The notes under the pieces were generated by a model that ran no database searches, was not told where the DNA came from, and saw only the letters and a list, made by a program, of their open reading frames with translations. From Prorocentrum cordatum (lineage: Eukaryota), in the NCBI GenBank assembly GCA_963575745.1, contig CAUYUJ010000229.1, forward strand, positions 1 through 64,000: DNA of 64,000 nt, read 5' to 3'. Of this stretch, positions 1-37,331 are shown in pieces. The translations under genes were made by a program, and so were the position numbers. Numbering within the stretch: the first letter of the stretch is position 1; the number at the start of each line of letters is the position of its first letter.

Positions 1-552
1 GCGGCCGCGGCTGGGAGGGGGAAACTATCGCGAATTTTTCGCGATAGTTTTCTTCTTCCAGCCGCGGCCGCGGCCGCGGCTGCAGCTCTGGCTGTGGCTG
101 CGGCCGCGGCTGGGAGGGGGAAACTATTGCGATTTTTTCGCGGTGGTTTTCTTCTTCCAGCCGCGGCCGCGGCCGCGGCCGCGGCTGCGGCTGCGGCTGC
201 GGCTGGGAGGGGGAAATTATCGCGAATCTGCGCGGCGGTTTTCTTCTTCCAGCCGCGGCCGCGGCCGCGGCTGCGGCTCGGCTGGCGTGGCCGCGGCTGG
301 GAGGGGGAAACTATCGCGATTTTTTCGCGGTGGTTTTCCTTCTTCCAGCCGCGGCCGCGGCCGCGGCTGCGGCTCTGGCTGTGGCTGCGGCCGCGGCTGG
401 GAGGAGGAAATTATCGCGAATTTTTCGCGGTGGTTTTCCTCTTCCAGCCGCGGCCGCGGCCGCGGCTGCGCAGGCGCGGCTGCCGCAGCGGCTGGGAGGG
501 GGAAACTATCGCGAATTTTTCACGGTGGTTTTCTTCTTCCAGCCGCGGCCGC
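1..552 (+). repeat. Tandem array (about 6 units, ~90-100 bp) of hairpin-forming repeats GCTGGGAGGGGGAAACTATCGCGAA-TTT-TTCGCG(A/G)T(A/G)GTTTTCTTCTTCCAGC separated by GCCGCG/GCTGCG runs
   Basis: Units start near 1, 101, 197, 287, 387 and 487. Unit 1 (4-68) folds into a 31-bp stem with 4 G-T pairs and a TTT loop. The array may continue left of the window. Confidence 0.9.
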
Positions 553-1410
<858 letters not shown>

Positions 1411-1593: not shown

Positions 1594-3420
1594 ATGGCGG
1601 GGCACCTGGTGAAAGCCCAGGACCTGCTGCTGCCTCCGGGTGGCGGTGGGGGAGCTGGTGCAAGCCTAGCAGAGTCGTGCGTCCCTGCGCGGAGTGCGGC
1701 GCGTCCGGTGGAAACCCGCGACGACCTTCTGCTGCTTCCTCCGGGAGGCGGTGGGGGAGTTGGTGAAAGCCCAGCAGAGCTGTGGCTCCCTCCGGGGACT
1801 GCGGCGTGCCCGGTGAGAACCCGGGAACCTCTCTCTTCAAGACCTGGGCTCTCCTGCCCGGGCCGCCCTTCGGGGTGTGCCTCAGAGCAATCTGAGGAAA
1901 CGCTGGAGCCCGCAGAAGCTTTCGAGCACGCTGTGGGGGAAGGCTCGGCCGCGTACGCGGTTGTGCTCTCGAGTGATCGAGAGAAATGCTGGGTTGATGC
2001 CGGCTCTCCCTCCGCGGGTGCGATGCGCGGACACCCCCGGGTTAACCGCGCCGGGGTTCATCGACACTTCACGGCAGTCGCTCGGGAGTCTCCACTCTCC
2101 GAGAAAGATAGTAGTGAAGGGAACCTCGATCCTACCGAGGCTAAACAAAGGACCTATGCAGCGGGCGCTCGGGAGTCTCCTCTCCCTTGGCAGCTAGCTG
2201 TTGTGGAAGCCCCAGCTCCGGCTGGGCGCCTGGTCGCGCCGCGCTGTGCGGCCGGGGAAAGTCCCGCGAAAGCGGGCCCTGGTTCCCCTCCGGGTTGGCC
2301 TGGTGCCATGGGGACTCGGTGGTTCATCACATCGGGTTACATTAAAGAAAGTTTGGAGGGAATGTCTGTATGTGCGGAAGCGTGGTGTGTCGGTGGCGCG
2401 GCGGGCGCGGTGGGCGGACGCGACTGCGGTCTGCGCTGGGAGGACGAAACGCTCGCCAAATTTTCGCGGGCGTTTTCGGCCCCAGCGCGGGCTGTGCGGC
2501 GCGGGGAGGCCTCTGGGTCAGTGCGCTGGGAGGGGGAAACTATCGCGAATTTTTCGCAACGGTTTTCTGCTCCGGCGTGTGGCCTGCTGGGCCGAGCGGG
2601 CGTTTCGGGAAGGGCGCTCTCGGAGGGGGATGCCCTCGCCGATTTTTCCCGAGGGTCTTCTGCTCCGGGGGCCGCTCGGTGCGGATGTGTCTCTTCGGAG
2701 GCAGCGCGCTGGGAGGGGGAAACTATCGCGAATTTTCTGCGACAGTGTTCCGATTCTGCCGCCAGCGACTGTGACAAGGACGACGAGATTGACGCTGGCG
2801 ACGATTGGTTTGGAGCTGACGACGTTGTCAGGCCAGCCCCGGTTTTGGCTTCCGCTTGGTCACCGGCGTTGGCCTCGGTTCTGTCGCGGCCGTGGCCTCG
2901 GTCCCGGCTCCGTCTGTGCGGGGCGCGGAGCGCGCCCCGCTGCTGGGGGGATCAGTTGAGTGGGAGGACCGGCTGCGTGAGAGCTTGCGCGCAGAGCACG
3001 ACGTGTTCATGGAGGAAGTCGTTGATGATTCCGCCTGGGAGGCGGCGAAGCGCGAGCAGAAAGCGCATCGCAAGGCGTGCCGCGCGTTGCTTCGGAGGTC
3101 GCGCTGCGCGCGGCGGGAGGCGGAGTGGGCGCGGCGGACGGAGGCGGCGGCGGCGCGTAACGAAGAGATGGCGGTCCGTGTCCCGCTTCGGGTCGTGCCG
3201 CGCTCGCTTCCGCGCGATGGGTCGCCGCGTGCGCGCGATGAGTTGCCGCGACGTGCCCGGGTGTCCCGCGCGGCGCTGGGGGGGCGGAGAAGCGCGCGAC
3301 TGCAGCAGTTTCTCAATGCCCGAGCGGCGCGGGCTGTCGATTCGGTGTCCACCCCGCGCGTGGCGCTGCCGTCTCTGGAAGCGCGGGTGTCTGCGCTGTC
3401 AGTCGGGGAGGTTGCGCTGA
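1594..3420 (+). CDS. Upstream ORF, probable N-terminal part of the transposon polyprotein (protein-like to ~2850, then likely joined to the giant ORF by a -1 frame change)
   Basis: ATG start. Contains frame-preserving repeats (2x DLLL(L)PPGGGGG, 2x ARESPL, 4x ~30-aa RWEGETIANFS-type units). Overlaps the giant ORF, whose frame is open from 2820. Confidence 0.5.
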   Translation: MAGHLVKAQDLLLPPGGGGGAGASLAESCVPARSAARPVETRDDLLLLPPGGGGGVGESPAELWLPPGTAACPVRTREPLSSRPGLSCPGRPSGCASEQSEETLEPAEAFEHAVGEGSAAYAVVLSSDREKCWVDAGSPSAGAMRGHPRVNRAGVHRHFTAVARESPLSEKDSSEGNLDPTEAKQRTYAAGARESPLPWQLAVVEAPAPAGRLVAPRCAAGESPAKAGPGSPPGWPGAMGTRWFITSGYIKESLEGMSVCAEAWCVGGAAGAVGGRDCGLRWEDETLAKFSRAFSAPARAVRRGEASGSVRWEGETIANFSQRFSAPACGLLGRAGVSGRALSEGDALADFSRGSSAPGAARCGCVSSEAARWEGETIANFLRQCSDSAASDCDKDDEIDAGDDWFGADDVVRPAPVLASAWSPALASVLSRPWPRSRLRLCGARSAPRCWGDQLSGRTGCVRACAQSTTCSWRKSLMIPPGRRRSASRKRIARRAARCFGGRAARGGRRSGRGGRRRRRRVTKRWRSVSRFGSCRARFRAMGRRVRAMSCRDVPGCPARRWGGGEARDCSSFSMPERRGLSIRCPPRAWRCRLWKRGCLRCQSGRLR

Positions 3421-6400
3421 TTGCAGCTTTAGTTTTCGCTGCGCTGGGTCTGTTCCCGCCAAGGCCACAAGTTCTTTCGGGTGGCCGCGCTGTGACGCGC
3501 GCGATGGCGCGCGCGCGGATGTGGAAAGAGAGAGAGAGCTTCTGGCGCGACGTGGACGCTCCGTCCGATGCGGCGCCGTCTGCCGCGAAGGTTTGGGTCG
3601 CCAAGTGGTTTTACTGTGGCCTGCGTGGGCTCTCCGCGCGGAGGTGCGGGGGGCGGCGCGTGTGCGCGCGCAGGTTCTCCCCCGGCATTGGCATCCGCGC
3701 TGCCAGGGCCAGGGCGGGCCGGGGCGCGGACGAGTGCGTGGGGGGCGCTGCCTGGAGGGCGTCGCAGAGGGCGGGGCAGTGCGTTGGCGATGCGGCTTTG
3801 CGCGTGGCCTGTGTCTTCGCCGCGGTGGGCGGTGTGTCCTGCGATGTGTGTTCCCGCGTGGGACGACTCGGTGCTGCTGGGGGGGTTGGCGCGTCCCGCG
3901 CGTGGCGGCGGCGCCTTCGACGTGGCGTCGCGTCGGGGCGACTCGGAGTCGTTGATGCGGGAGATCGCCTGGGGCCGTGGCGGAACAAGTGTCTGCAATT
4001 GAGTGTCGCTCGGTGCGGGGGTACTGGCGCGCGCGCGCAGGCGGAGTGCTTCTTCGAGTTGCAGTGCGCTAATGATTCCGGAGCTGGGGCGTGCGGTGAC
4101 GCGGCGGAGAAGGCGAACTTTGCTCTCGTGCAGGATTGGCTGGAGTCGCGTGGGGCGATGGTGCGCGTTTATGGGGCGGACGGTGCAGATGCTTTGCTGC
4201 GGGGCGTGTGTTGCGCCGTGTGGGTGCTGGGTTGTCCATGTGGGCACGACTTCGGATCTGTTGTGTGGTATCCCGAGGGCCATGTTGCAGCGGTTGTGGA
4301 TTCGGATGATCGGCTGGGCGCTCGCGTGCGTGTTGGAGATGCGGATGCTGCGCCGTGGCTTCGGTCCGTGGCTGGCGCCCCGAAGGCCGGTATGGGCGGT
4401 GTCAACCCGGATGCCGCGGGGATGAAGCGGCCCCGCCGCGACTTTGCATCTGCGGTCGGCTCTCCTGGTGGCAGCTCGCGTTCTGATGCCGTCTTCATGG
4501 CTCCGTCTCTTGGCGGCCCGCAGCGCGGAGACGGGGATGTGGAGCGTCTGCTGCCAGCAGACGAGGTTTCTAAATCGTCTTCTTCCGCGGGTGTCTCCGG
4601 CGTTCCTCCAGTTGTGCCCGCATCTGCTGCTCCGACCGTATCGGCGCATCTGGACGACGCTGCCGCATCTTTCGCTTCGCCTGTCGTTCCCGACGATGGC
4701 GTCAGGGATTCTGTTGGTCAAAAGTGCGCTTGTGATGGCACGTCGCCGCATTGCAAGTTCGGCCAAATGGTTCTGGGGTCCGGAGGCCATGCTGGTAGGA
4801 AGTGTGGCAATCGAGTGTCGATGAAGGGAGACTGGTGTGGGAAATGTAACGGCCGCTGCCATGGGGGGCAAAGGGGGGGCGCGGTTGGCTGTGTTGCGGA
4901 TATCGCGTCCGCCAGCGACGCCGTCCTCAATCGGGGGGCCGCGTGGGAGTCGTTGCCGCAGCACTTGCGCATGGACCGAGGTGTGGTGTTGCGCGTTGTC
5001 GGAGCTCGGGGGGGGGCTTTGGCTTCGGTACCCATTGAATTCCGAGACGATGTTGAAGTCGTGCTTGCCGCTGTGCGTAGTGATGACTTCGCTTGGGCGT
5101 CCGTGAGCGAACGGTTGCGGCTGGACCCGCGCGTGGTCGAAGAGGTTGCTGGTCAATTGGCTGAGACGGCGGACGAGGTTTCGCATGATGATTGGACCGT
5201 GCTGCCCCAGTTTGCTTCCGTGTTGGTTCGTTCAATGGGGCCCTTGGCCGCGGCGGTGACGAGTCAGCACGTCCGCGATAAGGAACGAATGTGTGTTCTC
5301 CGGCACCTGTGCCCAGCGGATTCTCTCGTGAAGGGTCTCGTTGCGCCGGGCGGCATTCGATTTGCTAGTCCTTCTCTGGCGGAGCGGCAGTGTTTGCAAT
5401 TCCTGGCAGAGAAGTATAAGCTCAAGCCCGAGTTTGTTCACTTCAAGTGCGTCTGGCTGCTTCACATTGCCGTTGCCATCACAGGGATTGCTCCTGCGAG
5501 TGTTCCCATCCATGGTCCGTCTGATGCCGCTGGGGGTGAGAGTGATGGTTTCGTGCTGGGTTCGCTGTACCAGCCGTGTTTGCTGAAGCGCTTCGAGAGG
5601 GGCGTGTCCAATGGTCGGATTACTCCGCTGGGGACGTTCGCGAGGAAGCGGGGGCAGTTTGCCGCGGGTCTTCACAGCCCCGTGCCTGATCTGTCGCCGA
5701 CGACTCTGGCTCATCGCGTCGCTGCGCTGTTCCCGAATGGATCTCTTGCCTCCGAGGATGCGTTTCGTGTGTGGGTGTTCTACGACTTGGTCTTCCGTTT
5801 CTTCGCTGACATCGCTGGCTTCGAAGCGTTCCTCGAGGTCACAGGTGGGTTGTTGCGAGATATCGACGCGTGGGCTCGACGCGCGCGGTTGGTCTTGGCC
5901 GAGTGCCCCTGTCCGGCTTACTTCTGGGGATCTACGAACGACGGGCGCCGGGAGTTCCCCATGGATCTCGTTCGACGTCGCGTGGAAGAGATCGGGTGGT
6001 GCATGTCTTGGCAGGGTGTTTCCGATGCGGATGAGCCAATCGCCCGTGTTTTGGCTTTCGTTGCGTTCCTGGGCGATTGGGCAGTGGGGGCGCGTCGCAT
6101 CGCTGCTGGCGTCATGCGGTTGCAGAGTTCGCGGACTGATTTGCATGCCATCGCCGAAGATATTGCGCTTGATTTTTGTCTGCCAGGGTTTGCTCACGCG
6201 GGAGAATGCCGAAAATTTGAATACTACTGGCCGAAGTTTCCGTTTAGTGACCTCGTGTTGTACTTTCAGGTGTCTCGTGCTTCGCGCGCGTCTGGGCGGT
6301 TCCTCTTGGGTCAGCGGAAGGTTCAGGCTTTGGAAGCCGTTACTTTCAATGGTCGTGGTGGCCGTCTCCCTTTGGTTGCTTTCGACATGGAGCCTTCTCT

Positions 6401-9400
6401 AGGCTTGTACAAGAAGTTGCGCGACCTGGACTCCGATTTACTTCGGTCAGATGCACTGCCCATCAGGGAATGTTGGGTGGGTCCGAGGTGTGTCGACCCA
6501 GCTTTGCTTACTGCGTACGACCCTCAGGTTACGAACTGTATGCTGTGGAAGCATGATGTCTGTGTGTGGAAGCCGCCCAATCAGAGATTCCTCGGTGTGT
6601 CTCGGGACGTCGATGCGTTCTACCGATTCTGGCGCAAGACGTACCGGGTGGAACGGCAAAATGTGTCTGCCCCGCGAGGTGTCCAGGATCCGCTGCTCCC
6701 TCCGCCTGTGCCTGTTTCGTCTCCTTCGGTTCCCGTGCCTTCGCCGTCGTCGGCTGGTGCTGCTTGGTGTTTGCGCGTTCAAGATTCTGCGACTGCAGGG
6801 CGGCTCTCGGTTGTCGACTACGGGAGTGTCTTTGTCGGTTTGCCTCGGAAGTGTTTTCCTCTGTGCATTGCTGCTTCTGGGGGCTCCGCATGGAACATTG
6901 CTGATGCCACTGCTTTTTTTGCTGAGCGTCTGAGCAATGATGTAGGCACTGGCATGGGCGGCGGAGTCGTTGAAAAGGCTAATATGGATCTGGTGCTGCT
7001 GTGGCTTCAGATGCGCAGCGCAGGCTACTGGGTTTTTCGAGCGAAGGCTTCTTCGGATTTTTTTTCTGGGGCGGTTGCAGGTCCATGGTGGCTCGGTGCG
7101 CCTGGCGCGGCGTGTGTCGGTGCGCTCCTCTGGCTCGAGCACGGTCACGTGGTGCGGATCGTGGACGACGATGGGGTTTTTCTTTCTGCCTCATTCTCAG
7201 CTGGGGTGTCTTCTGCGGAATCTGCGGACGCGCCGTGGCTGCGGTCCGTTGCAGGCGCGCCGAAAAAGAAGGCAGCCGCGAAAAGCAAGCGAGGTGCGCA
7301 TTTCCGAGGTGCGCAGAACCCAATTTCGATGGCGGCCGTTGCTGCGCGGCAGCGACGCGCGACTGGTGAGGATGGGGCGCCGTCGTCGTCTGGCGAGGAC
7401 ATGCCAGTCATCCCGGGAGTCACCGTCGACGATGCCGATTCGGGCGATGCTGCGGGGGCGTCCGTGCTTCGTCGACCTGCAGCTGCGGCCGCCACGCATG
7501 GCCGTGCGTCTGGGGACGAGAGCGATTCGGGTGAGGACATGCCGATGCTTCCAGGGGTTACGGTGGAAGAGGATGACGCGGGGGCTGCTCGGGCGCGATC
7601 GGACGCCGTCGCACCGCAGGCAGCGGCTGCGAGGCGCGCTCTTCGGGGCGCGGCTTCGGCCGCGGCGCCGCCGAGCGATTCTGATGGCGAGGAGATGCCT
7701 GTCCTTCCTGGAGTGACCGTGGACGTCGGGGGTGCTGACGATGGTGCAAGCGATGGCAGCGGGCCGGCCGCGCGTCCGCGCGGTGCCCGGAGAGCGCGCC
7801 GGAAGCGCGGGGCCGCGGACGGGGCGCTTGCGTCCGAGGCAGAGTCCCGGCAGTTCCAGCCGGATTACGTGGACGAGGACCGCTGCAAAGGGCTGACGTG
7901 GGGGGGGGGCTGGGGGCGAGAGCAGTGCCGGTTTCGGCCGAAGACGGGGAGCGACGTGTGCGGGAAGTGCGCTCGATATGGGTGCCCGCACGGGCGCGTC
8001 AGGGGCCCGATTCCTGCAGGCGCGTTGGATAAGTTCAAGGAGTTCGCGCTGAAGGCGAACAAGCCATCTAAGCAGTGGTACGCGCGGCACGCGATGTGGG
8101 ACGTGGCGTCGAAGATGAAGCCTGAGCTGAAGTCCTTGTGTGAGGTGGACGAGCACAAGCGATTTGTGTTAACGAACAGTGAGTACGAGCAGTGCCTCAA
8201 GCAAGTCCATGACAATCTCCGAATCCATAAGAACCATGGCCGTTCTGGCTTCGTATACGAGAAGGGGGCAGGGGTGCGGACACTGCAGGATCGCTGCGGG
8301 GAGGGAACTACTCGGTTCGGATCGGAGAGGGAGTCCTACAATGGGCAGCAGGGGGGGAAGGTGTTCATGTGGTACAGCAGGGCGGTCTTCAACAAGTACC
8401 TGGGGCAGCTGCAAGCTTCCGAAATGGATTGTAGCGAGAAGGACTGCGTGGAGGCGTTGCGGTTGACCAGCGAGGAGATTCGGCGGTACCCAATGAAGCA
8501 GCAGTATCTGAGACCGTACGCAGGCCCGCAGTGCTATCCGCACATTGATCCGCGTTCGAAGGAGAACAGGCTGCACGCGAACGAGAGAATGGGGCATGCG
8601 CTGGGAGAGGATCCGCAGGGGGGCGGCGACGGCGGCGCCAGGCCCGAGGCGTGCGGGGGAGCCGACGACGGGGCGTCGCACTTGTTCTGTATGCGGAATT
8701 GGGCGCAGTGCGATCGGTGCCACTGCTGGCGCCTGCTTCTGCCTGCCTGCGCTGCGCGCGCGCGAGGGGATGAGTACTACAGGGTTCGCGACACCGACTT
8801 GGATTGGGAGGGGTGGTTGACGGGGGCGGCGCATCGGTGTGCGGCGGCGGCTGGTGCGTCGAGAGACCAGGGCGCTGCGCTCGGTGGGGGGGGCGGCGAC
8901 GCCGTGGAGGGTGCGATGCAGCAGGGCGGCGGCGCGGACGAGGGCGGCGGTGGGGGGGAGATGCGCGGCGGCGCTCGGAAGCGGCGCCTGGGGCGGAAGA
9001 CATCCGAGGCGGAGGCTGCCGAGCCCGTCGCGGTGCGCGGCGGGGCGCGGAAGCGGCGGTTGGGGCGCAAGACGTCCGAGGCGGAGGCCGCTGCGAGCGG
9101 AGCGGGGCGCAGGGGCGCGGAGGAGGGGCGAGCTGGCGAGGGGGGCGCGGAGGTGCCGGAGGCGCGCCGGGGGCGCCGGAGACTCGAGCGCAAGACGTCC
9201 GCCGAAGAAGGGGCCGAAGCGGGCGGCGCGGTTCGCGGAGCCGTGGACGAGGAGGGCGGTGGCGACGAGACATTCGTCGGCATGGCGGAGTTATCGGCCT
9301 CCGATTGCGACGACGAGCGTTCTGCGTCAGATCATGAGTGCGCCTCGGAAGAAGACGCGGCACCGCTGCCGCGCGAGGTGCGCAGCGCGCTCGATGCGGA

Positions 9401-12400
9401 GCTGGTGCGTTTCGCTGGTGCTGGGCCGCCGACGGAGGCAGACTGGGCAGAGGCGCGAGCGGCCGAGGAGGGGCGCGGGAGCGCGCCGCGCCGCGCGGGA
9501 TTGTCGCGAACCGGAGGTGGGGATGCGCGGGCGTGGGCAGTTGCGTCCGTGCCCCACCTCAAGGACAAGCGGATGGTGGCATTGGTCGGTGCCGTCCGCG
9601 AGTACCTGGTGTTGTGCCGTCAGTGCGACCGGGGTAGTTTTCGGATCCAGGGGTCGGACGGCGATAAGTTGTGGGTTGCGCTGATGGAGCCGGGGCGGCC
9701 AGGACAGTTCGGGCGCGTGCTGCTGGAGCTGGAGGATCGCGCGCGCGGTCGTGGGCCGAGCGCGGAGCGTTCGTCTTGGGAGGCGATAGCCGTGGAGGAG
9801 GATTTCCGTCGTCGCTCGGAGTGGCCCCGAGTGCGTTTCGAGTGTAGTATGTTGCAGACGCCGGTCGTGTCCGAGAGCGGCGGGACGCAGTGGCGGGCGG
9901 TGCGGTGCTGCGATGAGCCGGACGGGGGCGATGCGGACGATTTCCAGGCTCTGTGGCAGCGCGAGTCGCGGGTCGCGGCCGGCTTCGCAGCGAACGTGGT
10001 TCGGGATGACGACGTGGTCGTGTTGCCTGTGGAGCGGCCTGCCGGGTGGACGGAGCCCGCGCACATGGCGGGGGCGTGGTGGCGGGGCCAGGGCCCGCGG
10101 GAGCGCAGAGCAGAGGAGGGGGAGAATCCCGGGCGCGTCTGGGTGGGCCAGCTGCAGGAGGACGCCGGCGTGGCGGGGCTGCTGCCCGAGGGCGGCGCGG
10201 GCGAGCGCACTGCGAAAGAAGGGCTCGACGCGCTGCAGCAGGCCGGTCAGGGAGCGCGGGGGGCGGGTCGCGCGGGTCGTGGCCGGGGGCGCCGAGCGAA
10301 GAAGCGCGGTCGGTACGGGAATGATTTGCGGGCCGTTATTCGGACCAGATGGGCGCCTGGGAGGTCGTCGGAAGGTGCCGGCCCGGGCGTCGCGGAGTCG
10401 TTTGTGTTTGGATCAGCGCCAGAATCGGAGCATTGGGAGATTCGTGTGGAGGCGCGTTTGCGCGAGCGCTGCGGAGGGCGTGTAGACCAACGAGCGCGTG
10501 TTGCTGCAGGGGACGTTCACCAGAAGTGCATGCTGCTGGCGCTGAAGACGGTGCCGCTGCGCGTGGCGAAGTATGACGTGCAGCTGCGCGATGCGTCCGT
10601 GCGGGCCGTGCAGGCGGCGCAGGCGATCCTGACGCGCATGGTGAAGTTCACGTGCCACGAGTGCCAGGAGCGGTTCCCGGCGTTCCACCCTGCCTTCGAG
10701 CCGCCGGACCAGCTGGCGGATGAGATGCTGCTGCTGCGTCGCGGCGGGGACGGGCTGGCTGCGTGCAGCACGGAGGTGGCCGAGTGGGACGAGGTGCCGC
10801 CGAGCGACCCGCCGGATGGCTTCGCCCTGGAGTGCGCGGGCGTGTGCATGCGGTGTAGGCGGGATCTGGACAAGCAGGCGGCGGCCGCGCCCACGGAAGA
10901 CGACCTGTATCAGGTGGTGGGTCTCCGCACCGCGCAGAATCACATGGACCCGTGCTTCCGGTTCCCCTCCGATGACCTGCGCGACCTGTTCGACCAGGCC
11001 ACGCTCACGGAGAGCCTGCTCATTGCTCTGGACCACATGCAGGTGCATCTGGCCACCGTGTCTCGGACAGGGCTGCGCAAGTTCCGCAAGAACATCATCT
11101 CGTTCCCGCAGGATGTGGCCGGGTTCGCGCGGCGTCACGAGCTAATGAAGGGGTACCGCGTCGGGGATCGCGTGAACTCGGTGCGCGGACCTGGCGAGCG
11201 CCCCGACGACCCGCACCGCCCGGAGCGCATTGCCGCGGGGGGCACGGACGAGGAGCGGCAGCGCTTCGGCGTGGACGTGTACGGGCGCCTGGTGTTTCCC
11301 GGTCGGGTCGCGGAGGTGCTGCTCAGTGGGGAAGTGATCATCGACTACGACCATGGCGGCAGGGGGAGGGAGCTTCAGGAGAACGTGGAGCCGCGGGTGA
11401 TGCTGCCCTGGCACCCGAGGAAGGTGCCCTTCAGTCTGATGCTGCGGCGGAACGTTGGTTTCGGGAAGGAGGTGGTCGAGGGCCTGCACGTGCGCTGGCG
11501 CTACTGTGGGCACCTGCTGCGGGCGCTGTGCGCGTTCGCCGGCACGTGCGGGCCCTGGCGCCTGGGCGGCACTGCGAATGAGCCCATGCACAAGTACTAC
11601 GACCCGCGTTTGTTTGATGTGCTGCCGGACGACGACATCATCCGGTGCTATGCGCCGAAGGAGAGCGACGACGGCGCCGTGCTGTCGGGGGACGAGGCGG
11701 GGGAAGCCGAGGGGCCGGGGCCGGTGACTCGGGCGGAGGCCATTGCCAGGGATACTGTTCCGTGTGGCGTCGACGTCGTCACGCCGCGGCAGTTCATTGC
11801 CGCGGGTTTCGACGTGCACTTCGTGGGGCCGCGTGATGAGGCTCAGCGAGGGGCGAGAGTCCGCGACGGCGACGGCGCACAGCGTGGCGACGAGGGCGGC
11901 CAGGACGCCGCGGGCGACGGTGGTGCGATGGAGGCAGATGAGGACCAGTTCGATGTCGGGGACGGAGACGAGGCCATGGCCGTCGATCACGATGTGTTCA
12001 GTGCTTGGCTCGAGAAGGCGCAGTTCAGGTACGGCGGGGCTGTGCAGCGATGGTGGGCGGGGCTGCAGCCGGAGGCGGAGGGTCATTTGGAGGGGCTGAA
12101 GTTTGGTGATGACGAGACGACGGAGGACCTTTTCGGGCGCTTGCTGGACGCGGCGCGGGGGGAGAGCAAAGTGGTGGCCGTGCAGAGGGATCGGGTGCCC
12201 GTGGAGTGCGTGTGCGTCGATTTCCTCGTGCATTGGATGGGGCCGCGGGTCGGGGGGCCGTTCTCTGACCCGGGCGGGGGCGTGACTCCAGAGGCGGTCC
12301 TGGACGATGTGATGCTGGAGTTGGCCATGGCCGGCAGGTTCGTGGGAGCTGCTCAGGACAAGGATACGGGGTGCGTGGAGGAGAATTTGCCGGAGTTTGA

Positions 12401-15400
12401 CGAGGACGAGGTGGTCGCGCGGACGGGAGAGCGGATGATTTACGGGTGGCCCGGCCAGAGTGACGACCCGATCCCGGCGCGCTCCGTCGGTCGCTTCGCG
12501 AGGGCGTTCCCGTTGGAGTTCCCGATGGGCATCGGCGACCTCTTCGAGGACCGCCCTCGCCGGGTCTCCGTGCAGGAGTGGGTGCAGCACCTGATGCGCT
12601 ACCGCACCGGGCAGTTCGTTGGTGGTCCGCGTGGGCAGCGCGTGATGTGGGCTATGGTGAACGTGCTGCTCCTGAACGAGGCACGGGCGAAGGGCTTCGG
12701 CGTGTATCGGACCATGTACAGGCGGGCGGGGCTCGCGGTGCAGGGCCCGAGTGTGATGACCAAGGGTGGGCTCAGGCAGATCTTGGAGAGCGAGGACCGT
12801 GTGCGGATCCTGGTGGGTCAGCTGGCGAACGTTGGGCGCGACGTGCCCTCGACCACGATGCATTGGTCCTATGAGTCCAAGAAGTTGCAGAGTACCGTGA
12901 AGCACCTGTCCTGGCACCCGCCCTGGGTCGAGGGCCCTCTGGCGGACGGCGCGGAGCATGTCGGCAGGCGGTTCCTGCGCGAGATGGACCTGCCGGCGGG
13001 GAACGGTCGGACTCAGCGCAGGCGGCCTCTCGTGCCGGATGTTGTCGGGCTCGGCCGGCACCCGTCCATCTGGTGGACGCAGAATCCGTTCTACAATGCC
13101 GCGTTTGACATTCAGCGCATGGGAGGAGGCCGGGGGGCGCGGGCGGCAGGGGAGCGCGCTCTCGGGGATTGGGTGGGTGACGGGCGAGAGGAGCGCTTTC
13201 GGTTCGCTCGGGACAACCCGGACCTGGTGGCGTACATGATGGCCCTGCGGGTGGAGCTGAACATGCGGATGGTGATGCCCGCAGTGCTGCCGCACTCTGA
13301 GCAGTTCAAGTACATGGCCATGGCCAGGGCCGAGTGTGGCGCGGGAGGGAATCTGCACTACCACGGGTTCAGCGTAGGGTTGCCGGGGCCCGAGGTTGCG
13401 CGGGTGCGTGCGGACGTGGACGGGGAGGGCGACATGCTCCCGCCGAGCGTGACCAGCGACTTGGCGGCGTGTTTGCCATCGCTGGAGGCGGGGCCGATGG
13501 CTTGGCCCCCGCAGGAGCAGAAGCGCCGCGCCGCTGCTCTCGCGGTCCTGGAGCGGGTGCTGCGCGCCGCTGCCGGCCGGCCAGGCGCGCGTGCATCCAG
13601 GGGTCGCGGGGGTGAGGATACGGCGGCTTCAGGGTCTGGGAGTGAGGATGGCGCGGACGACGACGATGAGGATGAGTTCGTGGGCAGGGCTGATGCGCTG
13701 CTTGACGCGCTGGTGGATCGCGGGTGGTTGGTGATCGTGGATGTTGATGAGGGTGCGCGCGGTCGGGGAGGCGACCGAGATGTTGCGTTCGAGCGTGTCG
13801 GCCGAGAGATTTCCGCGCCTGTGGACGCGCTGGGAGAGAGTCCTGTGGAGGATGGTGAGGGCGGTGACGGCGCAGAGGACGCGGGTGCGGGTTGGCCTGG
13901 TCCCGCGGGGGTCCGCTTGCAGCGCTTGACGGGTGCTGGCGCTGATTTCGGCGTGCTGAAGCCAGAACACGAGAACGTTTCGCTGCAGAGCGTTCTGGAG
14001 AAGCGGTTCTATGAGTTCTTCGGGCACGTGGTCTCGGAGTGGAACCCCTGCTACGATGACGCGGGCGCGTGCAGATACACGTGGGACGACGAGGTTGGGG
14101 CCTTCGATGTTGACGTGGAGATGGAAGACCAGGCTGCTGCTGAGACGTCGGAGGCCCGGGCGGTCCGGAGCGTGCCTGCGTCTGCGCCGGAGTGCTTGAA
14201 CTTGCGGAAGGTTCTGGACGAGGCCTTTCAGTCCGAGGCAGCAGGGACGTTGGACGTGCAGCCGGTTCGGAGAATGGTGTCCGCGCTGGTGAACAGGGTT
14301 GCGCGCCACACGAAGCATGGCATGGGCCCGCCGAAGCTCGGGGTACATGCGTGTGCGCGCGGAAAGGAGGGGTGCGTGTTCTGCCGGTATGATTTTCCGC
14401 GAGAGAGGTGGGGCCGCGTCGGGCCGAGACCGTTCCGGATGGAGAAGGGGCGCAGGGAGGGCCACTGGCAGGCGGTGTTCCCGAGGAACGACCGGCTCTG
14501 CAACAGCTACGAGGAGCACGTGCTCCTGGCCAATATGGGGAACATCGATTGGCGCCCCGTCCTGAACCTGTGGGCCGTTGTGGAGTACGTCACGAAATAT
14601 GCGACGAAAGCGCCCAAGGGCTCGCGGAAGATCAAGGAGGTGCTGGACGACGCCGTCAACGAGGTCTGCGCGTACGTTCCCGACGGCGAGGGCACCGACT
14701 TCCTCCGACGCTCGATCCAGAAGTTCTTCGCTCGGATGCTCGGGGAGAGGGATTACCATTGTTACGAAGTGGCGCTGCTGGGGTTGCGCTTGCCAATGGT
14801 CTTGTCCATGATGCCCGTCGTGACTCTGAACACGACGGGCGCGCGTGCCCTGAAGCCTGCGTCCGCACTGCGGGACAAGTCGGAGGATGAGCCGGTTCAC
14901 TGGGATAGCAAAGTGGACAAGTTCGACAAGCGCCTGGAGTTGGTGCGGCGCCAGCGGGCCCGGGGCGACGGGTCCATCACGGAGGAGGAGGTGCGCGATG
15001 TGTCACTCTTCGAGTTTTACTGGAAGTACGCCGTGTATCGAGGGAAGCTGAGGCGCGGGAACCCTGCGGTGTGCCTGCAGGTGACGCCCGGCTATAGCGC
15101 GGAGTGTGCGAACGTGGAGCACGCCTGCCACGAGGCGTACGCGCGGGCGAACGTCATCGCGCACTGGCGGCACATGGCGACGGCGGACCGCAGAGCCATG
15201 ATCGGTGCAGAGATGCGGCGCGACGTCCGCCCTGTGCCGGAAGTCTGCATTGGGGCCACGGATTTCGTGCCCCATGCTGGGGGCGATCGGTTCCTGGGAG
15301 TGCAGGATCTGTGGTTCAAGTCGGGGGGGGCGGCTTGGAGGGGCAGGGAGGATCGGTTCTGGGGAGATATGTTGATGGAGATGCTCACGGACCCGATGCT

Positions 15401-18400
15401 CCGACAGTGGGTGCCGGCGTGGGTCGTGGAGCAGTACGAACGCGCGAATCCGTTCTACAAGGAGGTGCTGGGCGCAATCTTGGAGGCTGGTGGGGTGCGG
15501 ACCAACCGCGAGCTGCTGAGGCGGACGCGCCGCGAGATGGTGCGTCGGCACCGGGCGCGGCAGCAGGGGCGTGACGCTGGGGCGGGCGACGCCGCGGGCG
15601 ACGTGGGGGGCCAGGAATCCGACGGTGGCTCGAGGGAGGGTGACGCTGGCAGAGAGAGCGATGCGGCGGAGTCGGGGGAGGACGTGGAGGAGCTGGTGGA
15701 CAGACTCGCGCAGAACGCCGAGGACGATCCCAACGAGGAGCCTCGGGATATCGTGTTGCGCGACCCGCGACCAGGGGAGGGTGTGGAGGGTGCCGCAGGT
15801 GCGGGGGAGGTGTCCGAGTGGGATCGCCGCCCAGCGGATGAGCGTGTTAGCGCGGCGGGCCCCGCGGTGCAGGCGGCAGACGTGCGCGTCGGGGATGTGG
15901 CGCGGGAAGACGTTCGCGGGAGGGTGCGTGTGAACCCGAAGGATTTCAATTGGCTGGATGAACCGTGCAATGTGTCGACAGGGGAGAAGCGGCGCCTCGA
16001 GGAGCTGCGCGATGTCTGGTACGGCAAGGCCAACGTGGGTGACGGGGCCGAGGTCGTCTTGCGCGAAGACCTGGACCCCTGGCAGAAGTTTGCCCACGAC
16101 ATCGTTATGGATGGACGCCACTCCGAGAAGGACCCGCTCCGCCTGATGGTCACGGGCGTGGCAGGCACGGGGAAGTCGCGCACGGTGCGTAGTTTTGTGG
16201 CGGCGAGGCGACAGAGGGCGCGTCAGACGGCTCCGCGGACCAGAATGGATCGGGTGCCGGGCCTCCGGGGTGGGATGCGGGAGGGAAGGCGCTCTCAGTC
16301 GGAGATTGATGAGGAGGTGCGGAATTGCTGTTTGCTGGCTGCTCCGACAGGGTGCGCCTCGTTCCAGTTGAAGTATGGGGCGACTACTCTGCACAGGGCT
16401 TTCGGCGTTCCGGTGGGGTACTGCGGGCCTTGGAAGCAAAAGGGCGGTGAACGCTTCTTGCGGACGCGGGGCCGGTTGCGGCAGGCGAAGCTGTTTGTGT
16501 TGGATGAGATGAGTATGATCGGGCGGCAGATGTTGGGGAAGATCGAGTACAAGGTGCAGGACACTCTGGGCACGGATGCGAAGTTTGCGGCACGCGGAGG
16601 AGGCGGAAAAGGAGGAAAGGGGAGGAAGATGGAGGAGGAGAAGCCAGTGTATCTCGGCGGGAAGGATGTCGTGCTGGCAGGAGATCCGCAGCAGGCGCCG
16701 CCCATCGGCGACGATCCGTTGTATCGAATGGGCAAGTATGAGGGGCATGGGAAAAATAAGCCGAGGGGGGCGGAGCGCACTCCAGACGATGCGTGGAGCA
16801 CGGAGAAGTTGGTGGCCACGGGCCAGTTTGTGCGCAATACGTTCCAGGACGTCGCCGTGCTACGGCGCGTGCACAGATGGAGTGGGAAGAAGGAGGGTCT
16901 GTCCGCCGAGCGGCAGGCGGAGTACCGGCGGGATGCCGATCGTTTTCTGGAGGTGACCAAAGGAATGGCGCAGTGCACGTGGGACCAGTCGGATCATGCG
17001 TGGTTGAGGCGCCGGAACAGGTCGGTGCTGCAGATGACGAAGGAGGGCAGGGAGGAGCTCGCAGCGTTCGAGACGGCGCCGCTGCTGATGGATGGCAGGA
17101 AGGATCGGGCGTCGGGTGCCTGCGGCGCGGATAGGGTGAACCTGGAGAGGCTGTACCAGGTGGCGGCTGCCAGTGGCAAGCCCATTGCGTCTCTGCGCGC
17201 CTATCACAATTGGAAGGATAAAAGTAAATCTCGGCCGGAAGAGATGGCGGCCGACGATTTCCGAGGGATCGAGAACGAGCTTCACATGTGTGAAGGGGCG
17301 CGCGTGCTGCTGACGCAGAACTTGTGGGTCGAGGCGGGGTTGATGAACGGGGCGATGGGCACGCTGCGCGGGTACATGTGGCCGGACGGGGCGGACCCGC
17401 ACAACAGTGCGCGCCCGGATCTGCAGGCGCCCATTTGTGTTTTCGTCGAGTTCGACGACGTCGATCTGGGAAAGGACGAGAATGGCGAGCCGCGGTCTTT
17501 CTTCAAGAACGATCCTGTGCGCAAGAACTGGGTGCCCATCTGGAGGCAGACTGTATCGTCCACGACGGAGGACGGCCTCGCGCGCGAGAACTACCCGCTG
17601 CAGCTGGCGTGGGCTTTGACGCACTGGAAGGCGCAGGGGATGACGTTGGCGAAAGTCCGCGTGCACATGTCGGCGAAGACCGCGGCCGTCGCTGGGATCG
17701 GGTTCGTCGCAACGACGCGCGTCAGGCATCCGTGGGACTTGGTGTTCGAGGAAGACTTGCCGGAGTACGCGGACTTCATGCGGGCCAGGCACACGACGGC
17801 GTTCCGGGAGCGCCGTCGGTTCGAGCTGCGGTTGGAGGCGCGCGCTTCGTCAACGTTGCGGAAGTATGGGTACTGCGAGGCGGATTTGTGGACCGCAGAG
17901 GAGAGGTGTGCGGCGGGGAGATTGTTGGGCCGTCTCGAGACCGTCCGTGCGGCGCAGGCGGAGAGGCTCAGAGGTCTGAACAGAGTGGTGGATGATGACA
18001 CTTGGCTCTGGGGTGAGGACGGCGCGCCGTGCGTGTCCGCGTTGGCTGAGGCTGTCGATGCCGAGGCGGGGGGTGATGACGTCGCGCGGCGGCGTCTGAC
18101 CGCCGTGGCTGACAGGCTCCTGGACCGGAAGAGGGTGCGCGGTGTGACGTTGGAGGAACGCGAGGCCGCGCGGGAGCTGGCGGGTGGGGATGCAGAGGAT
18201 TTCTCTGGTGTTGACACGGTGGAAGAGTTGCGGGGGCGTTTGAGGGCTGCCGCTGCGCGGCTGTCGCGGGAGCGCCCAGACGACGACGGAGTGGAGTTGT
18301 TGGGCCGTGTCGCTGACATGATGGTGGATCGGTGGGTGGCGTGTGGGCGGTGGGATGGTCGCGTGTTCGATGTCGTGGAACCGAGCCTGGGCCCGCTGCA

Positions 18401-21400
18401 CATGAGCGCTGTGAAGGAGGCCATGGGTGCGCTGGTGCCGCCGAGACTGCACGGGAGCTTGGATAAGGCGGCCAGGAAGATGAAGGATGCGTTCGGGGAT
18501 GTTCGCGGTGGCTGCGCGCTGCGGATGGACAAGTGGGTCGTGAACGTGCGGTCGGAGGGCGCTCTGGCGGAGGGCAGACTGGAGCGTCAAGCGTTGGAGT
18601 TCTTCCTGAAGGTGGCGCGACAGCTGTGCTCAGGGTTAGACCTGCCGATGACTGTGGCCTCGGCAAAGGTGGGCGAGCACGTCGGCGCGGAGGAGAACCC
18701 AGAGCATTTTGCTCGGGTGGCGCACAACTGGACGAGCGTTTGGGACGCGAGCTGCGTCAGCGATAAGAAGGAGTTGCTGATGGTTGCTGCCGTGGACGCT
18801 CTGAGCGTGTCTGGCGTTCCCCAGGATTGGATCTTCGTGCGCGTCCAGGCTGGTCGGGCGGGGGAGGCGCTCGGGCGTGCCGAGTCTCTGACCGTGTGCG
18901 TGTACGATCGAGGCCGCAGGGAGGCGGTTGCAGGGCGAATCGCTCGGAATATCGACGCGCTGCTGCGGCCGATACAGGCCAGTGATGGGCGGCGCCCGCC
19001 ACCAGTGGTAGAGTTTGGGGAGGCGCCGCACGTTCGGGTGCCTTCGCAGAGGATCGCCGGCGCACTCGGGCTCCTGCTGGGCCACGTTGGTCGCGGGGCC
19101 GGTGCCAGGGTGCTGGATGCGTCGGCGGAGTCGTTCGTGCCAGACGTGTGTCGTGCGTTGCGGGGCGCGTTCGCGTCTTTCCGCGCGGGTGTCGGCGCGC
19201 GGGGTGCGCGGGATGTCATGGAGTTGTTGCTCTCGGACCAGGAGTGCCGTGACGCTCTGGACCTCTTCGGCGTCGCCCCGCGCGCGGATGTGTCTGGGCC
19301 CAGTGCGGCGGGCGCGGGCCGGGCGATGGCGGGTGTGGTGGGGAGGGCCGTGGACGAGGCAGGCGAGGGAGAGGGCCTTGAGGGCGCGTCGACGTTGTCG
19401 TTTGCGACGTGGAACATTGCTGGTGGGCATCGCGCTGCCGTGGCGCCGCATTCCTGGACCGCGCGGGATCAGCGCGCCGCGGTTCTTGGCGAGGTGCTCC
19501 GTTGGAGGCAGGCGCGCGGGTGTGACGTCGTTGCCTTGCAGGAGTGCGAGGGCGGGGGTGCGTACGAGGAGCTGTCAGGGGAGTTTCAATTGGCGGGCGT
19601 TGCGCAGGCGCACGAGTCCAGGGGGTATGTGCATCTGTACGTCAGGCACGGTCTGCGGGCGGAATCTGTGGCTGTGCCAGGGCAGGATCCGTGCGTGCTG
19701 TGCCGTGTCCAGGTGCCCGGAGACGGCGGCGCCGGCGGCGATGGGCACGTGCACGTGGCGGCGGTGCACCTGCCCACGGACGCGTCATGGGAACGGCGTC
19801 GTGCGATACTTGGGAAGATTGTGGCGAAGTGCGGGGACGAATGCCATCGGCTGCTCATCGTGGGCGACATGAACAGCACGGATGCGCAGGTGCAGGCAGC
19901 CGTGGAGCAGTTGCGTCTGAGGGACGCATGGTATGAGGGCCGATCCTGGGGTTGCCCCGGCAATAAGTTCTATTCGGGTCTCGGCGAGAGGGGGGCTGTC
20001 GGCCAGAGACGTGACCGGGTGCTCTTTGGAGCGGATCTCTGGTCCGAGGTGCACTTGGTAGGGAAAGGGAAGGTGTTCTTCGAGGGTTCCGAGTTCCACA
20101 TGTCCGACCACTATGGGCTGTTCGGGTATGTGCGTGCCCACGCGTGCTTTGGATCTCGGGAGCAGAAGATGAGGGCCGTGGCGCAGCGCGCGCGAGTCGT
20201 GCTGCAGGCGACGCGCGATCAGTCACAGAGACTGGAGGGTGTGGAGGTTCAGAGTCGGTTACAGCGTGGTCGAGAGGCCGCGGCGCTGGCCCGGCAGCAG
20301 GCGCAGGAACGAGATCGAGAGGCGTACTTGCGGACGCAGCAGCGGGCTGCCGGCCGCCGACAGCGCCGTCGGGAACAAGCGATATCCGCAGCGTTCGGGC
20401 CACAGAGTTTGTTTGCTTTGGGTCGCCCGGTTCCGCCGCCGCCGAGCCCCTGCCCGCCTCCGCCGCCACCGTGCCCGGCAGACATGTATGTCCCGAACGT
20501 GGCTGGCATTCGCGCGGCTTCGTGGGACAGCGTGCGGTGCGTGCCCGTCCGAGGGATGCCGCGGCCATGGCACACCTGCTACGTGGTCAGTGTGACGCAG
20601 CTGATGTTGCGGACGCCTGCCGTCTTGGAGTGGCTTCGATGGCATTCAGAGCAGCAGTGCGAGGACCGGGGCACGGGGCGTTGTTGCGTGTGCGGGATGT
20701 GGGAGACGTACAACCAGTTGTGCTCGCGACGCTGGCAGCAGGGACCTGTGAGTGTGCTGCGGCGTACGAGCGTTGACTGCGACGACGATGTGATGGGGCG
20801 GCCGAGTGAGTTCAATGACCCGTGGCAGCAGCAGGATGTGTTTGCGTATTGGGGTAAGCTGATGGTGGCTGCGCGTGACGCAGAGATGTTGGCAGGTCGG
20901 TTTGCGCAGCGGGAACCCGATAGCATCCGCGCGGTGAATCTGCGGGTGACGTGCGTTGATCAGATGTTCGGGTTCGTCGTGGAGAAGCGGGAGAAGTGTG
21001 ACGTGTGCAATTACGAGACTGTCGCGTACGAGGCTGAGGATGTGCTGAAGCTGCGTGTTCATGGGCGTCCAGGTGGGCCCTTGATGCTGCAGGAGTTGTA
21101 CTGCGACTTTTGTGCTCCTGAAGATATCGAGAAGAGCTGCCCGGGGTGCTGCCGCGACGAGCACGACCGGGTTAAGCACGTGAGGCAGACGAGAGCCACT
21201 GGTGTGCCACAGGTTCTGGTGGTTCAATTGAGGAGGGGCTCCGAGGCGCGGGAGGCAGTGTGGGTGGAAGAGCAACTGAGGCTGCCAGGGCTTCCCCAGA
21301 TGCAGTTGGTCGGTGTGGTTTACCATAATGGGCGGTCAGTTAATTGCGGCCATTACACGACTCTGTGCCGCGTTCATGATGGGAGGTACTTCATGTTTGA

Positions 21401-23218: not shown

Positions 23219-23348
23219 CTGTGTGCCTGTCTGTGTGTCTGTGTGTCTATGTCTCTATGTGTCTATGTGTCTGTGTGTCTGTGTGTCTGTGTGTCTGTGT
23301 TTTTGCGTCTGTGTGTCTGCGTGTCAGTGTGTCAGTGTGTCTGTGTAT

Positions 23349-23391
<43 letters not shown>

Positions 23392-35300: not shown

Positions 35301-36623
35301 GTCTGTGTGTCTGCATGGCTGTGTGTTTGTGTGTCCGCGTGTTTGTGTGTCTGAGTTTTTGCGTGTCTGGATGTCTGTGTGTCTGTGTGACTGGTTGGCT
35401 GTGTGTCTGTGTATCCTTGTGTCTGCGTGTCTGTGTGTCCGTGTGTCTGCGTGTCTGTCTGTGTGTGTGTCTGTGTGTCTGTCTGCCTGTGGATCTGTCT
35501 GTGTTGTCTTTCTGTGCGTCTGTGTGTTTGTCTGTCTGTATGTGTGTCTGTGCGCGTGTATTTGCGTTTGTGTGTGTGTATGCGTGCGTGTGTGTGTGTC
35601 AGTGTGTGTGTGTGTGTGTGTGTGTGCGTGCGCGCGCGGCGCTGGCAGCCCCGTGCTGGCCCCCCCCCGCCCTTCCCCTTTCTCGGGTGCTCCGCGAGGG
35701 CGGAGTGGTTGGAGTGGAGGGAGGGCCGGCCCCAAAATGGGGCGGTGCCTCCCCCCTCCGGAGCGCCGGAAGGGGGTGTGGTGGGTGGGTGGGGGGGGGC
35801 TCTGTCTGCCAGTCAGTGTGTCTGTGTGTCTATGTATCTGTGTGTCTATGTGTCTGTGTGTCTGTGTGTCCGTGTTTTTGTGCGTCTGTGTGTCAGTGTG
35901 TCAGTGTGTCAGTGTGTCTGTGTATTTGTTTGTCTGTGTGTCTGTGTGTCTGTCTGTCTGGGTGTCTGTGTGTCTGTGTGCCTGTGTGCCTTTGTGCCTG
36001 CGTGTCTGTGTGTGCTTGTGTCTGCGTGTCTGTGTGTTGGTGTGTCTGCGTGTCTGCGTGTCTGTGTGTCTGAGTGTCTGTGTGTCGTGTGTCTGTGTGT
36101 CTGTGTGTCTGTGTGGCTGTGAATCTGGTGCTCTGTGTGTCTGTGTGCTTGAGTGTCTGTGTGCCTGTGTGTCTGTGTATTTGTTGTGTCGTCTGTATGT
36201 CTGTGTGTCTGTGTGTCTACGTGTCTGTGTTTCTGTGTGTCTGTGTGTCTGTGTGTCTGTGTCTATTGTCCGTGTGCTGTGTGTCTGTGTGTCTTTGTGT
36301 TTGGGTGTGTCTGTGTGTCTGGTGTCTTTGTCTCTGTGTGTTGTGTGTCTGTCTGTGCTGTGTGTGTGTGTGTGGGGTGTGTGTGTGTGTGTTGTGGCGT
36401 GTGTCCGTGTGTCTGTGTGTCTGTGTGTCTGTGTGTCTGTGGGTCTCTGTGTTTGTGTGTCTGTGTGTGTGTCTGTCTGTGTGTGTGTCTGTCTGTCTGT
36501 GTGTCTGTGTGTCTGTGTGTCTGTGTGTCTGTGTGTCTGTGTGTCTGGTTGCCTGTGTGTCTGTGTGTCCGTGTGTCTGTGTGTCTGTGTGTCTGTGTGT
36601 CTGTGTGTCTGTATGCCTGTGTG

Positions 36624-36662
<39 letters not shown>

Positions 36663-36708
36663 GTGTCTGCTGTCTGTGCGTGTGTGTGTGTCTGTCTGTC
36701 TGTCTGTC

Positions 36709-36755
<47 letters not shown>

Positions 36756-36785
36756 GTCTGTCTGTCTGGTCTGTCTGTCTGTCCG

Positions 36786-36843
<58 letters not shown>

Positions 36844-37331
36844 GCGCGTGTGTATGCGTGTGTGTGCGTGTGTGTGTCAGTGCGTGTGTGTGTGCGCGCG
36901 CGGCGCTCGCAACCCCGCGCCCCCCCTCCCCCTTCCTCCAGCGCCCCGCGAGGGCGGAGTGGTTTGAGTGGGGGGAGGGCCGGCCCCAAGATGGGGCGGT
37001 GCCTCCCCCCTCCGGAGCGCCGGGAGGAGGTCGGGGGGGGGTTCGTGCGTGTGTTTGTAAGTGTTCGTTCGTGTGACGTGGGTGTGGTTGTAAGTGTGTT
37101 CGTTTGTGCGTGTGTGTGTGTGTGCGTTTGCTTGTGTGACTGTCTCTGTTCTCAGTGCGTGTTTTCTGTGGGTGTTCGCGATTGCGTTCGTGTGTCTGGT
37201 GCGTGTGTGTGTGTGTCTGGTGCGTGTGTGTGTGTGTGTGCGCGTGTGCCTGTGTGTTCGTGCGTGTGTGTGTGTGCTTTTCCGTTTGCGTGTGTTTATG
37301 TTTGTATGAGTGGGTGCGCGTGTGTCTGGTA

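Follow-up and report, generated by a model that had tools for sequence, protein, structure and literature searches.

An optional in-frame block carrying an unnamed helical domain in a giant Helitron-like polyprotein of Prorocentrum cordatum

Does a giant transposon polyprotein of a dinoflagellate carry a captured domain and, if so, might that domain act on modified bases in the host DNA? This question is raised by a 64,000-nucleotide (nt) stretch of Prorocentrum cordatum DNA (GenBank assembly GCA_963575745.1, contig CAUYUJ010000229.1, positions 1 to 64,000), hereafter the window, in which a giant open reading frame (ORF) of 6,624 amino acids (aa) would encode the product of a Helitron-like element. 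Helitrons are well known to capture host or foreign sequence. A first-pass annotation of the window had proposed that an aromatic-rich region of this ORF is transposon cargo akin to phage proteins that hypermodify 5-hydroxymethyluracil (5hmU). Our analysis retains the first half of this proposal, the cargo, and does not support the second, the assignment to the phage amino-acid:DNA transferases (ADDT). What we are left with is a captured domain, probably DNA-acting, for which 5hmU would be a hypothetical target.

An optional block with its own codon usage

The firmest result of this study is that the domain is cargo, carried on a block that the element can do without. First, contigs of four public DNA runs (X1-X4), which we aligned to positions 2500-9500 of the window, reveal that block-less forms of the element exist at the DNA level, in three runs that each belong to a different study. 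Contigs that are ~98% alike run from 3662 to 4150 and resume at 7229, an in-frame skip of 3,078 nt (X2 and X3, with a shorter side of 60 letters), and contigs of a ~87%-alike subfamily join 4301 to 7288, skipping 2,986 nt (X1, X2 and X3, with a side of 34). Second, codon usage, followed along the ORF, shifts over the same stretch: T-ending codons account for 0.25-0.46 in every segment of 4151-7228 versus 0.12-0.18 outside, with a drop back past the block, and the rise affects nearly every amino acid. Both the richness in T-ending codons and the capture by a transposon had been anticipated by the first-pass annotation; the former is borne out and the latter supported. Deamination of CpG was considered as the source of the T-rich codons and ruled out, as the observed/expected ratio of CpG is unchanged (1.16 versus 1.17). 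Because the contig joints skip this stretch (~2.9-3.1 kb) and the codon shift covers it, we think it likely that the element carries the block only optionally.

The left edge of the block lies between 4150 and 4385 and the right edge between 7229 and 7288; in an alternative register, it is a unit of 2,880 nt (4386-7265), bracketed by the 35-nt direct repeats listed in Table 1, whose spacing is exactly 2,880 nt. Besides the domain, the block contains a Cys cluster, DUF4116 and the second copy of a 160-aa flanking domain that we call D. The two copies of D are 36% identical (BLASTP, E 2e-20), both end in APWLRSVAGAPK, and neither has a Pfam match at E<=1. A Cys (..KC..) and a pair of residues, GH, are retained in D and might fit a cysteine protease. 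The Cys/His cluster at the start of the module may be a zinc ribbon, judging by its residues, and for DUF4116 a literature search gave nothing on function in the portions of the sources available. Only one long contig covers the block, record 3 of X1 (4116-6814, 2,699 nt, 8 differences), with a word depth of 11.6 versus 265-332 for the X1 flank contigs at 3662-4145; since contig depths are not copy numbers, weight is placed here on the joints. Two marine metagenomes also contain short contigs that match the block exactly (X2, 5281-5582; X4, 6500-6752).

The block was probably gained rather than lost. It has its own codon usage, the edges of which match the junction; the ~98%- and ~87%-alike subfamilies both lack it, with differing junction coordinates; and the 87% form retains part of the C-terminal half of the first D copy (4259-4301). 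Furthermore, the 2,986-nt skip equals 2,880 nt plus the 106 nt adjacent to the repeats (the letters between the joints are not known), which would suggest a form that never had the unit. The opposite polarity, in which the block is ancestral and the abundant block-less copies are internal deletions, produced via the two D copies or the 35-nt repeats and then multiplied, draws on the direct repeats that bracket the unit and on the general experience that deleted derivatives commonly outnumber full-length Helitrons. It also draws on what weighs most against a gain, the 4150|7229 junction, which reads ...QDWLESR|APWLRSVAGAPK: here, not only the block but also the C-terminal half of D is missing from the 98%-alike block-less form, which suggests a deletion. 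Nor do the contig depths help the case for gain, as they cannot serve as copy numbers. However, a loss would leave the distinct codon usage of the block, with its edges at the junction, unexplained, and would have to accommodate two block-less subfamilies with different junctions as well as the 2,986-nt arithmetic of the 87% form. We therefore regard an ancestral block as unlikely. If the block was indeed gained, a module comprising the Cys cluster, DUF4116 and the domain would have entered the giant Helitron-like polyprotein as an in-frame block of 2.9-3.1 kb, probably by recombination with a diverged relative that likewise has the D domain at its flank, ending in APWLRSVAGAPK. The donor would probably be such a relative, for example another element lineage, and less likely an unrelated host gene, because block and backbone have the D domain and a Cys cluster in common.

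A conserved domain and its relatives

The motifs by which the domain was first recognized (LVFRFF, FSDLVLY, NGRGGRLPL and DPQVTNCMLWKH) are all present, in the order originally described and in a single + frame within 2856-22730. The stretch is also as aromatic as claimed, with F+W+Y at 13.4-13.5% versus 6.7% for the whole ORF, which makes it the most aromatic 326-aa window of the giant ORF (99.7th percentile of sliding windows), and the frequency of T-ending codons in it is roughly doubled. The compact domain that had been delimited is real, but it is part of a larger conserved unit of ~475 aa (~5256-6680), in which a poorly modelled linker connects an N-terminal subdomain to a 326-aa core. 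As far as sequence comparison can tell, the domain is under real selection and its motifs are not due to chance, because YYWPKFPxSD, GRGGRLPL and TAYDPQVxNCMxWKHD have hardly changed in homologues that share 36-65% identity. Invariant or near-invariant positions are spread over the core, from Y27-D28, R60, R62, C68-P69, Y73-F74, G76-S77, D80-G-R-R83, R115, D125-W126 and C159 in its first part to Y174-Y-W-P-K178, S182-D183, Q189, G217-R-G-G-R221, Q275, C279, H284-D285 and C287 in its second. Among these, C68, C159, C279 and C287, together with H284, would be candidates for metal binding.

When 1.84 billion cluster representatives were searched exhaustively with phmmer, 18 proteins scored E<=0.001, six of them E<=1e-30. 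These 18 representatives make up the family, and those that are named all come from P. cordatum. A word-indexed search found five relatives of similar length, three of which are partial P. cordatum products with 59-61% identity. Two records (P0007 and P0009) share 96% aa identity with the window; because their substitutions differ, there are at least two further copies of the stretch among P. cordatum records. The order of the modules (Cys/His cluster, DUF4116, N-terminal subdomain, core) is the same in relatives, including the separate P. cordatum records at 59-61% identity, and DUF4116 is also found in four of the 18 members. A profile search (alignment A4) gave 10 matches, all close to known relatives and none new; longer, fused relatives were not found, in itself weak evidence; and pattern scans of viral contigs and prokaryote genomes revealed no relatives. 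A metagenome scan yielded two loci, L002 and L003, which are 97% alike; of the domain they encode no more than the last 260 aa, the C-terminal part, within a 348-aa ORF. Their 3.3-kb contigs hold no other part of the giant ORF and say little on context; in the stretches concerned (1555-2601 in L002, 1874-2732 in L003), the domain sequence runs straight into a stop, after which the DNA is of low complexity and richer in AT, and one of the two is frameshifted. They may come from another protist, in which the copy would be truncated or divided among exons. By sequence, then, this is an unnamed domain family whose members to date are all of dinoflagellate type.

Fold of the domain and the comparison with base-acting enzymes

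What could such a domain do? Two AlphaFold2 models, one of the 475-aa unit (predicted local distance difference test [pLDDT] 62.4, predicted template modelling score [pTM] 0.59) and one of the 326-aa core (pLDDT 73.9, pTM 0.76), are both all-helical. When they were compared to 48,161 chains, 18 and 14 of the 50 top rows, respectively, came from one superfamily, that of the helix-hairpin-helix (HhH)-GPD glycosylases, which provided the sole full-length matches. In the core model, helix 204-211, loop 212-217 and helix 218-226 place GRGGRLPL in a helix-hairpin-helix, and 11-12 of 12 sequences retain G217, R218, G219, G220 and R221. From model and conservation, this region, to which none of the HhH models in Pfam gives a match, may be read as an HhH. 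The models thus make the architecture of the domain tentatively glycosylase-like, although we would not put this at even odds. For the complete reading, in which the domain acts on DNA and resembles the glycosylases in having two lobes and a helix-hairpin-helix, we estimate a probability of roughly 0.4. The domain would then grip DNA through its Gly/Arg hairpin, with an invariant polar set (D28, DGRR, WPK..SD, Q275, C279, H284 and D285) facing a flipped or damaged base, and the apurinic/apyrimidinic (AP)-endonuclease-like domain of the same protein would allow a base-excision-like nick.

Several observations weigh against this reading. The best-conserved motif, the C-terminal DPQVTNCMLWKH, is poorly modelled in both cases (pLDDT 32-49 in the core model), and the alignment is shallow (16-18 sequences). 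In Endonuclease III, the catalytic Asp of HhH-GPD enzymes is expected ~20 residues past the hairpin; no conserved Asp follows the candidate HhH of the domain, where D228 and D243 vary and neither reaches 85% conservation. Sequence searches are also unfavorable: Pfam at E<=10 gives no match for the domain and only DUF4116 and stray matches for the 18 members, none of which matches HhH-GPD or related models, the profile check that the first-pass annotation had proposed; PHROGs at E<=1 gives no match for the domain; PDB sequences, searched by phmmer and by profile, return only chance-level matches; and hhalign gives 0.2% against ADDT. Foldseek finds no match at E<=0.001 for either model in the PDB, nor in BFVD, and in the ESM Atlas recognition is low (1570 and 1390), with unrelated clusters. 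Whatever its ancestry, the domain is not a canonical glycosylase. A quite different explanation is that it has a helical fold of its own and no DNA chemistry, serving instead in protein binding or regulation, in which case the glycosylase matches would reflect a common packing of ~15 helices. We take this to be a real possibility, albeit one we do not favor: one superfamily that is a small share of the 48,161 chains supplies 18 and 14 of the 50 top rows and the only full-length matches, charged or polar side chains prevail at the invariant positions (D, R, K, Q, H and C), as for a catalytic or nucleic acid-binding site, and the host protein is a DNA-processing polyprotein.

The proposal that prompted this study was more specific. 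It placed the domain with phage aGPT-Pplase/ADDT proteins and had it read or modify 5hmU-derived bases, with its Cys as C6 nucleophile or as a binding residue. The relevant family, aGPT-Pplase2, is now named ADDT in Pfam (PF18724), and on sequence criteria membership in it is not supported, because four tests (Pfam, hhalign, catalytic motif and kinase partner) all failed. First, PF18724 does not match the domain or any of the 18 family members at E<=10, while M6 gp51, run against the same Pfam library as a positive control, scores 1.4e-46 (159.6 bits). Second, hhalign comparison of alignments A1, A2 and A4 with an alignment (A3) of seven phage ADDTs (M6, PaMx11, PhiW-14, RHph_I65, P26218, CaiB and SH-Ab 15599) gives a probability of 0.2% (E 0.26-0.32, over 15-27 columns), or 0.04% in global mode, with limited power since the profiles are shallow on both sides (Neff 1.4-3.7). 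Third, the CE dipeptide that had been described as usual for the family is not what ADDT sequences show; they have instead an E-T-x-x-C motif near the C terminus (E243, T244 and C247), invariant in all seven, the residues of which bind metal and attack C6 in the PaMx11 ADDT structure, according to the part of the report available (PMC11472151). At the putatively corresponding place the domain reads Q-V-T-N-C, in which Glu and Thr are absent; 12 of 13 sequences retain its Cys and as many its Gln, candidate equivalents of residues of the ADDT motif. Fourth, ADDTs act on 5hmU phosphorylated by a kinase, as stated in the accessible text of PMC8989533, and the 6,624-aa ORF has no match to P-loop kinase or HMUDK_hel, which would denote a 5hmU DNA kinase, at E<=0.01. 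In addition, ADDT ranks below Endonuclease III-type enzymes in the structure-match lists of both models. A long hhalign alignment forced with mact 0.01 pairs DGRR with ERR and GDW..IA with GPW..K.AD and leaves the two cysteines unpaired; it has no statistical support and was not used as evidence. The order of motifs does loosely parallel that of ADDT (ERR/DGRR, W..K..[AS]D, a C-terminal Cys followed by K and H), a likeness without statistical weight. Taken together, we find this proposal very improbable.

The element, its surroundings and known systems

The Helitron-like nature of the element is indicated by its sequence features (Table 1). A PIF1-family helicase (Pfam PIF1, 1.1e-09) is fused in one ORF with a pair of HUH-type Rep motifs, the first of which, HYHG, is covered by a weak match to a rolling-circle Rep profile (REP_ORF2-G2P, E 0.077); Helitron_like_N has no Pfam match in the giant ORF. 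An endonuclease domain (Exo_endo_phos, 2.8e-12) lies downstream of the helicase, and an endonuclease in this position is a hallmark of Helentrons. We thus conclude, from sequence features, that the giant ORF is the product of a giant Helitron-like element of this type. Other Pfam matches are DUF4116 near the front and a ubiquitin C-terminal hydrolase (UCH, 2.2e-14) at the C-terminal end; to our knowledge OTU proteases are the ones found in Helitrons, hence UCH may be unusual there.

Table 1. Features of the giant ORF and its optional block (positions in the window)
Feature	Position	Strand	Basis or remark
Giant ORF, 6,624 aa, of a Helitron-like (Helentron/Helitron2-type) element	2856-22730	+	ORF list
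Flanking domain D, copy 1, ~160 aa, no known family	3900-4370	+	BLASTP, copy 1 versus copy 2
In-frame block, 3,078 nt = 1,026 codons, without which many element copies exist	4151-7228	+	Contig joints, codon usage
35-nt direct repeat encoding APWLRSVAGAPK	4350-4384	+	Partner 7230-7264, 89% identical
Cys/His-rich cluster at start of conserved module	4725-4868	+	Sequence; kept in relatives P0002 and P0004
DUF4116 repeat, best stretch (three stretches in 4500-5255)	4974-5120	+	Pfam, E 5.3e-05 and E 6.6e-10
N-terminal subdomain (model 1 residues 1-80)	5256-5495	+	Block pLDDT 46-94, mostly 67-94; conserved in P0002-4, P0013, P0019 and P0021
Poorly modelled linker (model 1 residues 82-149)	5499-5702	+	pLDDT mostly <50
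Core helical domain, 326 aa (the cargo domain of the first-pass annotation)	5703-6680	+	
LVFRFF motif	5787-5804	+	Sequence
NDGRR motif	5937-5951	+	Core D80, G81, R82 and R83 invariant in 8/8 sequences covering them
YYWPKFPFSDLVLY motif	6222-6263	+	Y174, Y175, P177, K178, P180, S182 and D183 invariant
FSDLVLY motif	6243-6263	+	Sequence
Candidate helix-hairpin-helix: helix QRKVQALE, loop AVTFNG, helix RGGRLPLVA	6312-6380 (core 204-226)	+	Model secondary structure and conservation
NGRGGRLPL motif	6348-6374	+	Sequence
DPQVTNCMLWKH motif	6519-6554	+	Q275, C279, H284, D285 and C287 each kept in 12-13 of 13-14 sequences covering them
Flanking domain D, copy 2, inside block	6762-7250	+	BLASTP versus copy 1
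HYHG motif, upstream of helicase	13356-13367	+	Sequence
YVTKYATK motif, upstream of helicase	14586-14609	+	Sequence
PIF1-type helicase region	16143-17363	+	Pfam PIF1, AAA_19, AAA_30 and Pif1_2B_dom
Endonuclease/exonuclease/phosphatase (AP-endonuclease-like) domain, downstream of helicase	19404-20111	+	Pfam PF03372, 2.8e-12
UCH domain	20571-21476	+	Pfam PF00443, 2.2e-14

The surroundings of the ORF have their own features. A 608-aa ORF starting with ATG (1594-3420, other + frame) extends 565 nt into the giant ORF, which makes the true start of the latter, listed from a TTG, uncertain. A ~95-nt tandem unit with an imperfect palindrome (GGGAAACTATCGCGAATTTTTCGCGATAGTTTTC) occurs in six copies at the start of the window (1-600) and in three to four more just upstream of the giant ORF (2426-2781), and could represent a terminus of the element or part of its promoter. 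Downstream lies a 13.3-kb array (23612-36893, also 23228-23440) with ~1,667 copies of the 8-nt unit CTGTGTGT, 76% matching, which accounts for the extreme AT skew (-0.85 to -0.9) at 24-38 kb. Within the ORF, the linker behind the block (7380-7720) has three copies of a short acidic repeat, GEDMPxxPGVTV, and a second Cys cluster (~7880-8000, CKGLTW...CGKCARYGCPHG) echoes the one in the block.

The significance of these findings is twofold. First, a block of 1,000 codons has been placed in frame within a 6,624-aa transposase polyprotein and kept open, and the domain family that it carries is unnamed, lacks a Pfam model and has no relative of solved structure; its sole structural lead is to base-flipping, base-processing enzymes. 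Among the matches listed in the literature available, no account of this captured block was found for Helitrons in dinoflagellates and no Helitron-borne DNA glycosylase is described; a search on P. cordatum transposable elements and Helitrons found nothing. As block-bearing and block-less forms coexist in one species, they offer a clean natural experiment on the role of an accessory domain. Second, a base-processing domain on a dinoflagellate transposon would be a handle on how mobile elements cope with 5hmU. According to the available part of PMC11572971, 22-45% of the thymidine of three dinoflagellates is replaced by this base, repeats are enriched in it, its loss leaves the transposons that it marked activated, and it appears to serve dinoflagellates in transposon silencing. 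That the transposon acquired a glycosylase- or ADDT-fold enzyme that removes or rewrites this silencing mark is, we think, a long shot. Such an eraser would act with the AP-endonuclease-like domain of the element, either in erasing the mark or in making the nick that starts rolling-circle transposition, and would be the first term of a parallel with a fungal case discussed below: a transposon-borne eraser of a thymine-derived epigenetic mark. If the domain is unrelated to DNA, the finding shrinks to an ordinary capture event.

How does this system compare to known ones? The closest to the domain are the HhH-GPD glycosylases (Endonuclease III/NTHL1, MagIII, AlkA, AGOG, OGG1, MutY and ROS1) and DUF2419, a queuine-salvage enzyme that belongs with the glycosylase fold. 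Unlike these, the domain lacks sequence or profile similarity and a conserved catalytic Asp or Lys after the hairpin, and has an extra conserved Cys/His motif (C279, H284 and C287) with a spacing unlike that of the iron-sulfur loop of Endonuclease III. From the phage ADDTs (M6 gp51, ViI gp247 and PaMx11 gp46/PUGT, PDB 8z2m), it differs not only in Pfam and profile-profile comparison, in reading Q/V for E243/T244 and in having no 5hmU kinase partner in the ORF, but also in being eukaryotic and fused in a transposase polyprotein, whereas ADDT is a stand-alone phage gene in a modification cluster. The element itself resembles Helentron/Helitron2 elements in its PIF1 helicase, HUH-type Rep motif pair, downstream endonuclease and acquired sequence, although its ORF has 6,624 aa and adds a UCH protease; and whereas a usual Helitron capture is a fragment between ORF and terminus, the block sits in frame within the polyprotein and is kept open. 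Finally, fungal transposons including Helitrons have captured TET/JBP dioxygenases, which were passed between transposon lineages, as the available part of Kojima 2025 reports (PMC12730594), and these set a precedent, that of enzymes directed at a host silencing mark being taken up by DNA transposons. Together with the 5hmU of dinoflagellates, this precedent makes an anti-silencing role a reasonable idea by analogy, for which neither is evidence. The parallel has its limits: in fungi, both the enzyme family and its chemistry are identified, in contrast to the present domain, and the mark in dinoflagellates would be 5hmU (PMC11572971, in the part available) instead of 5-methylcytosine.

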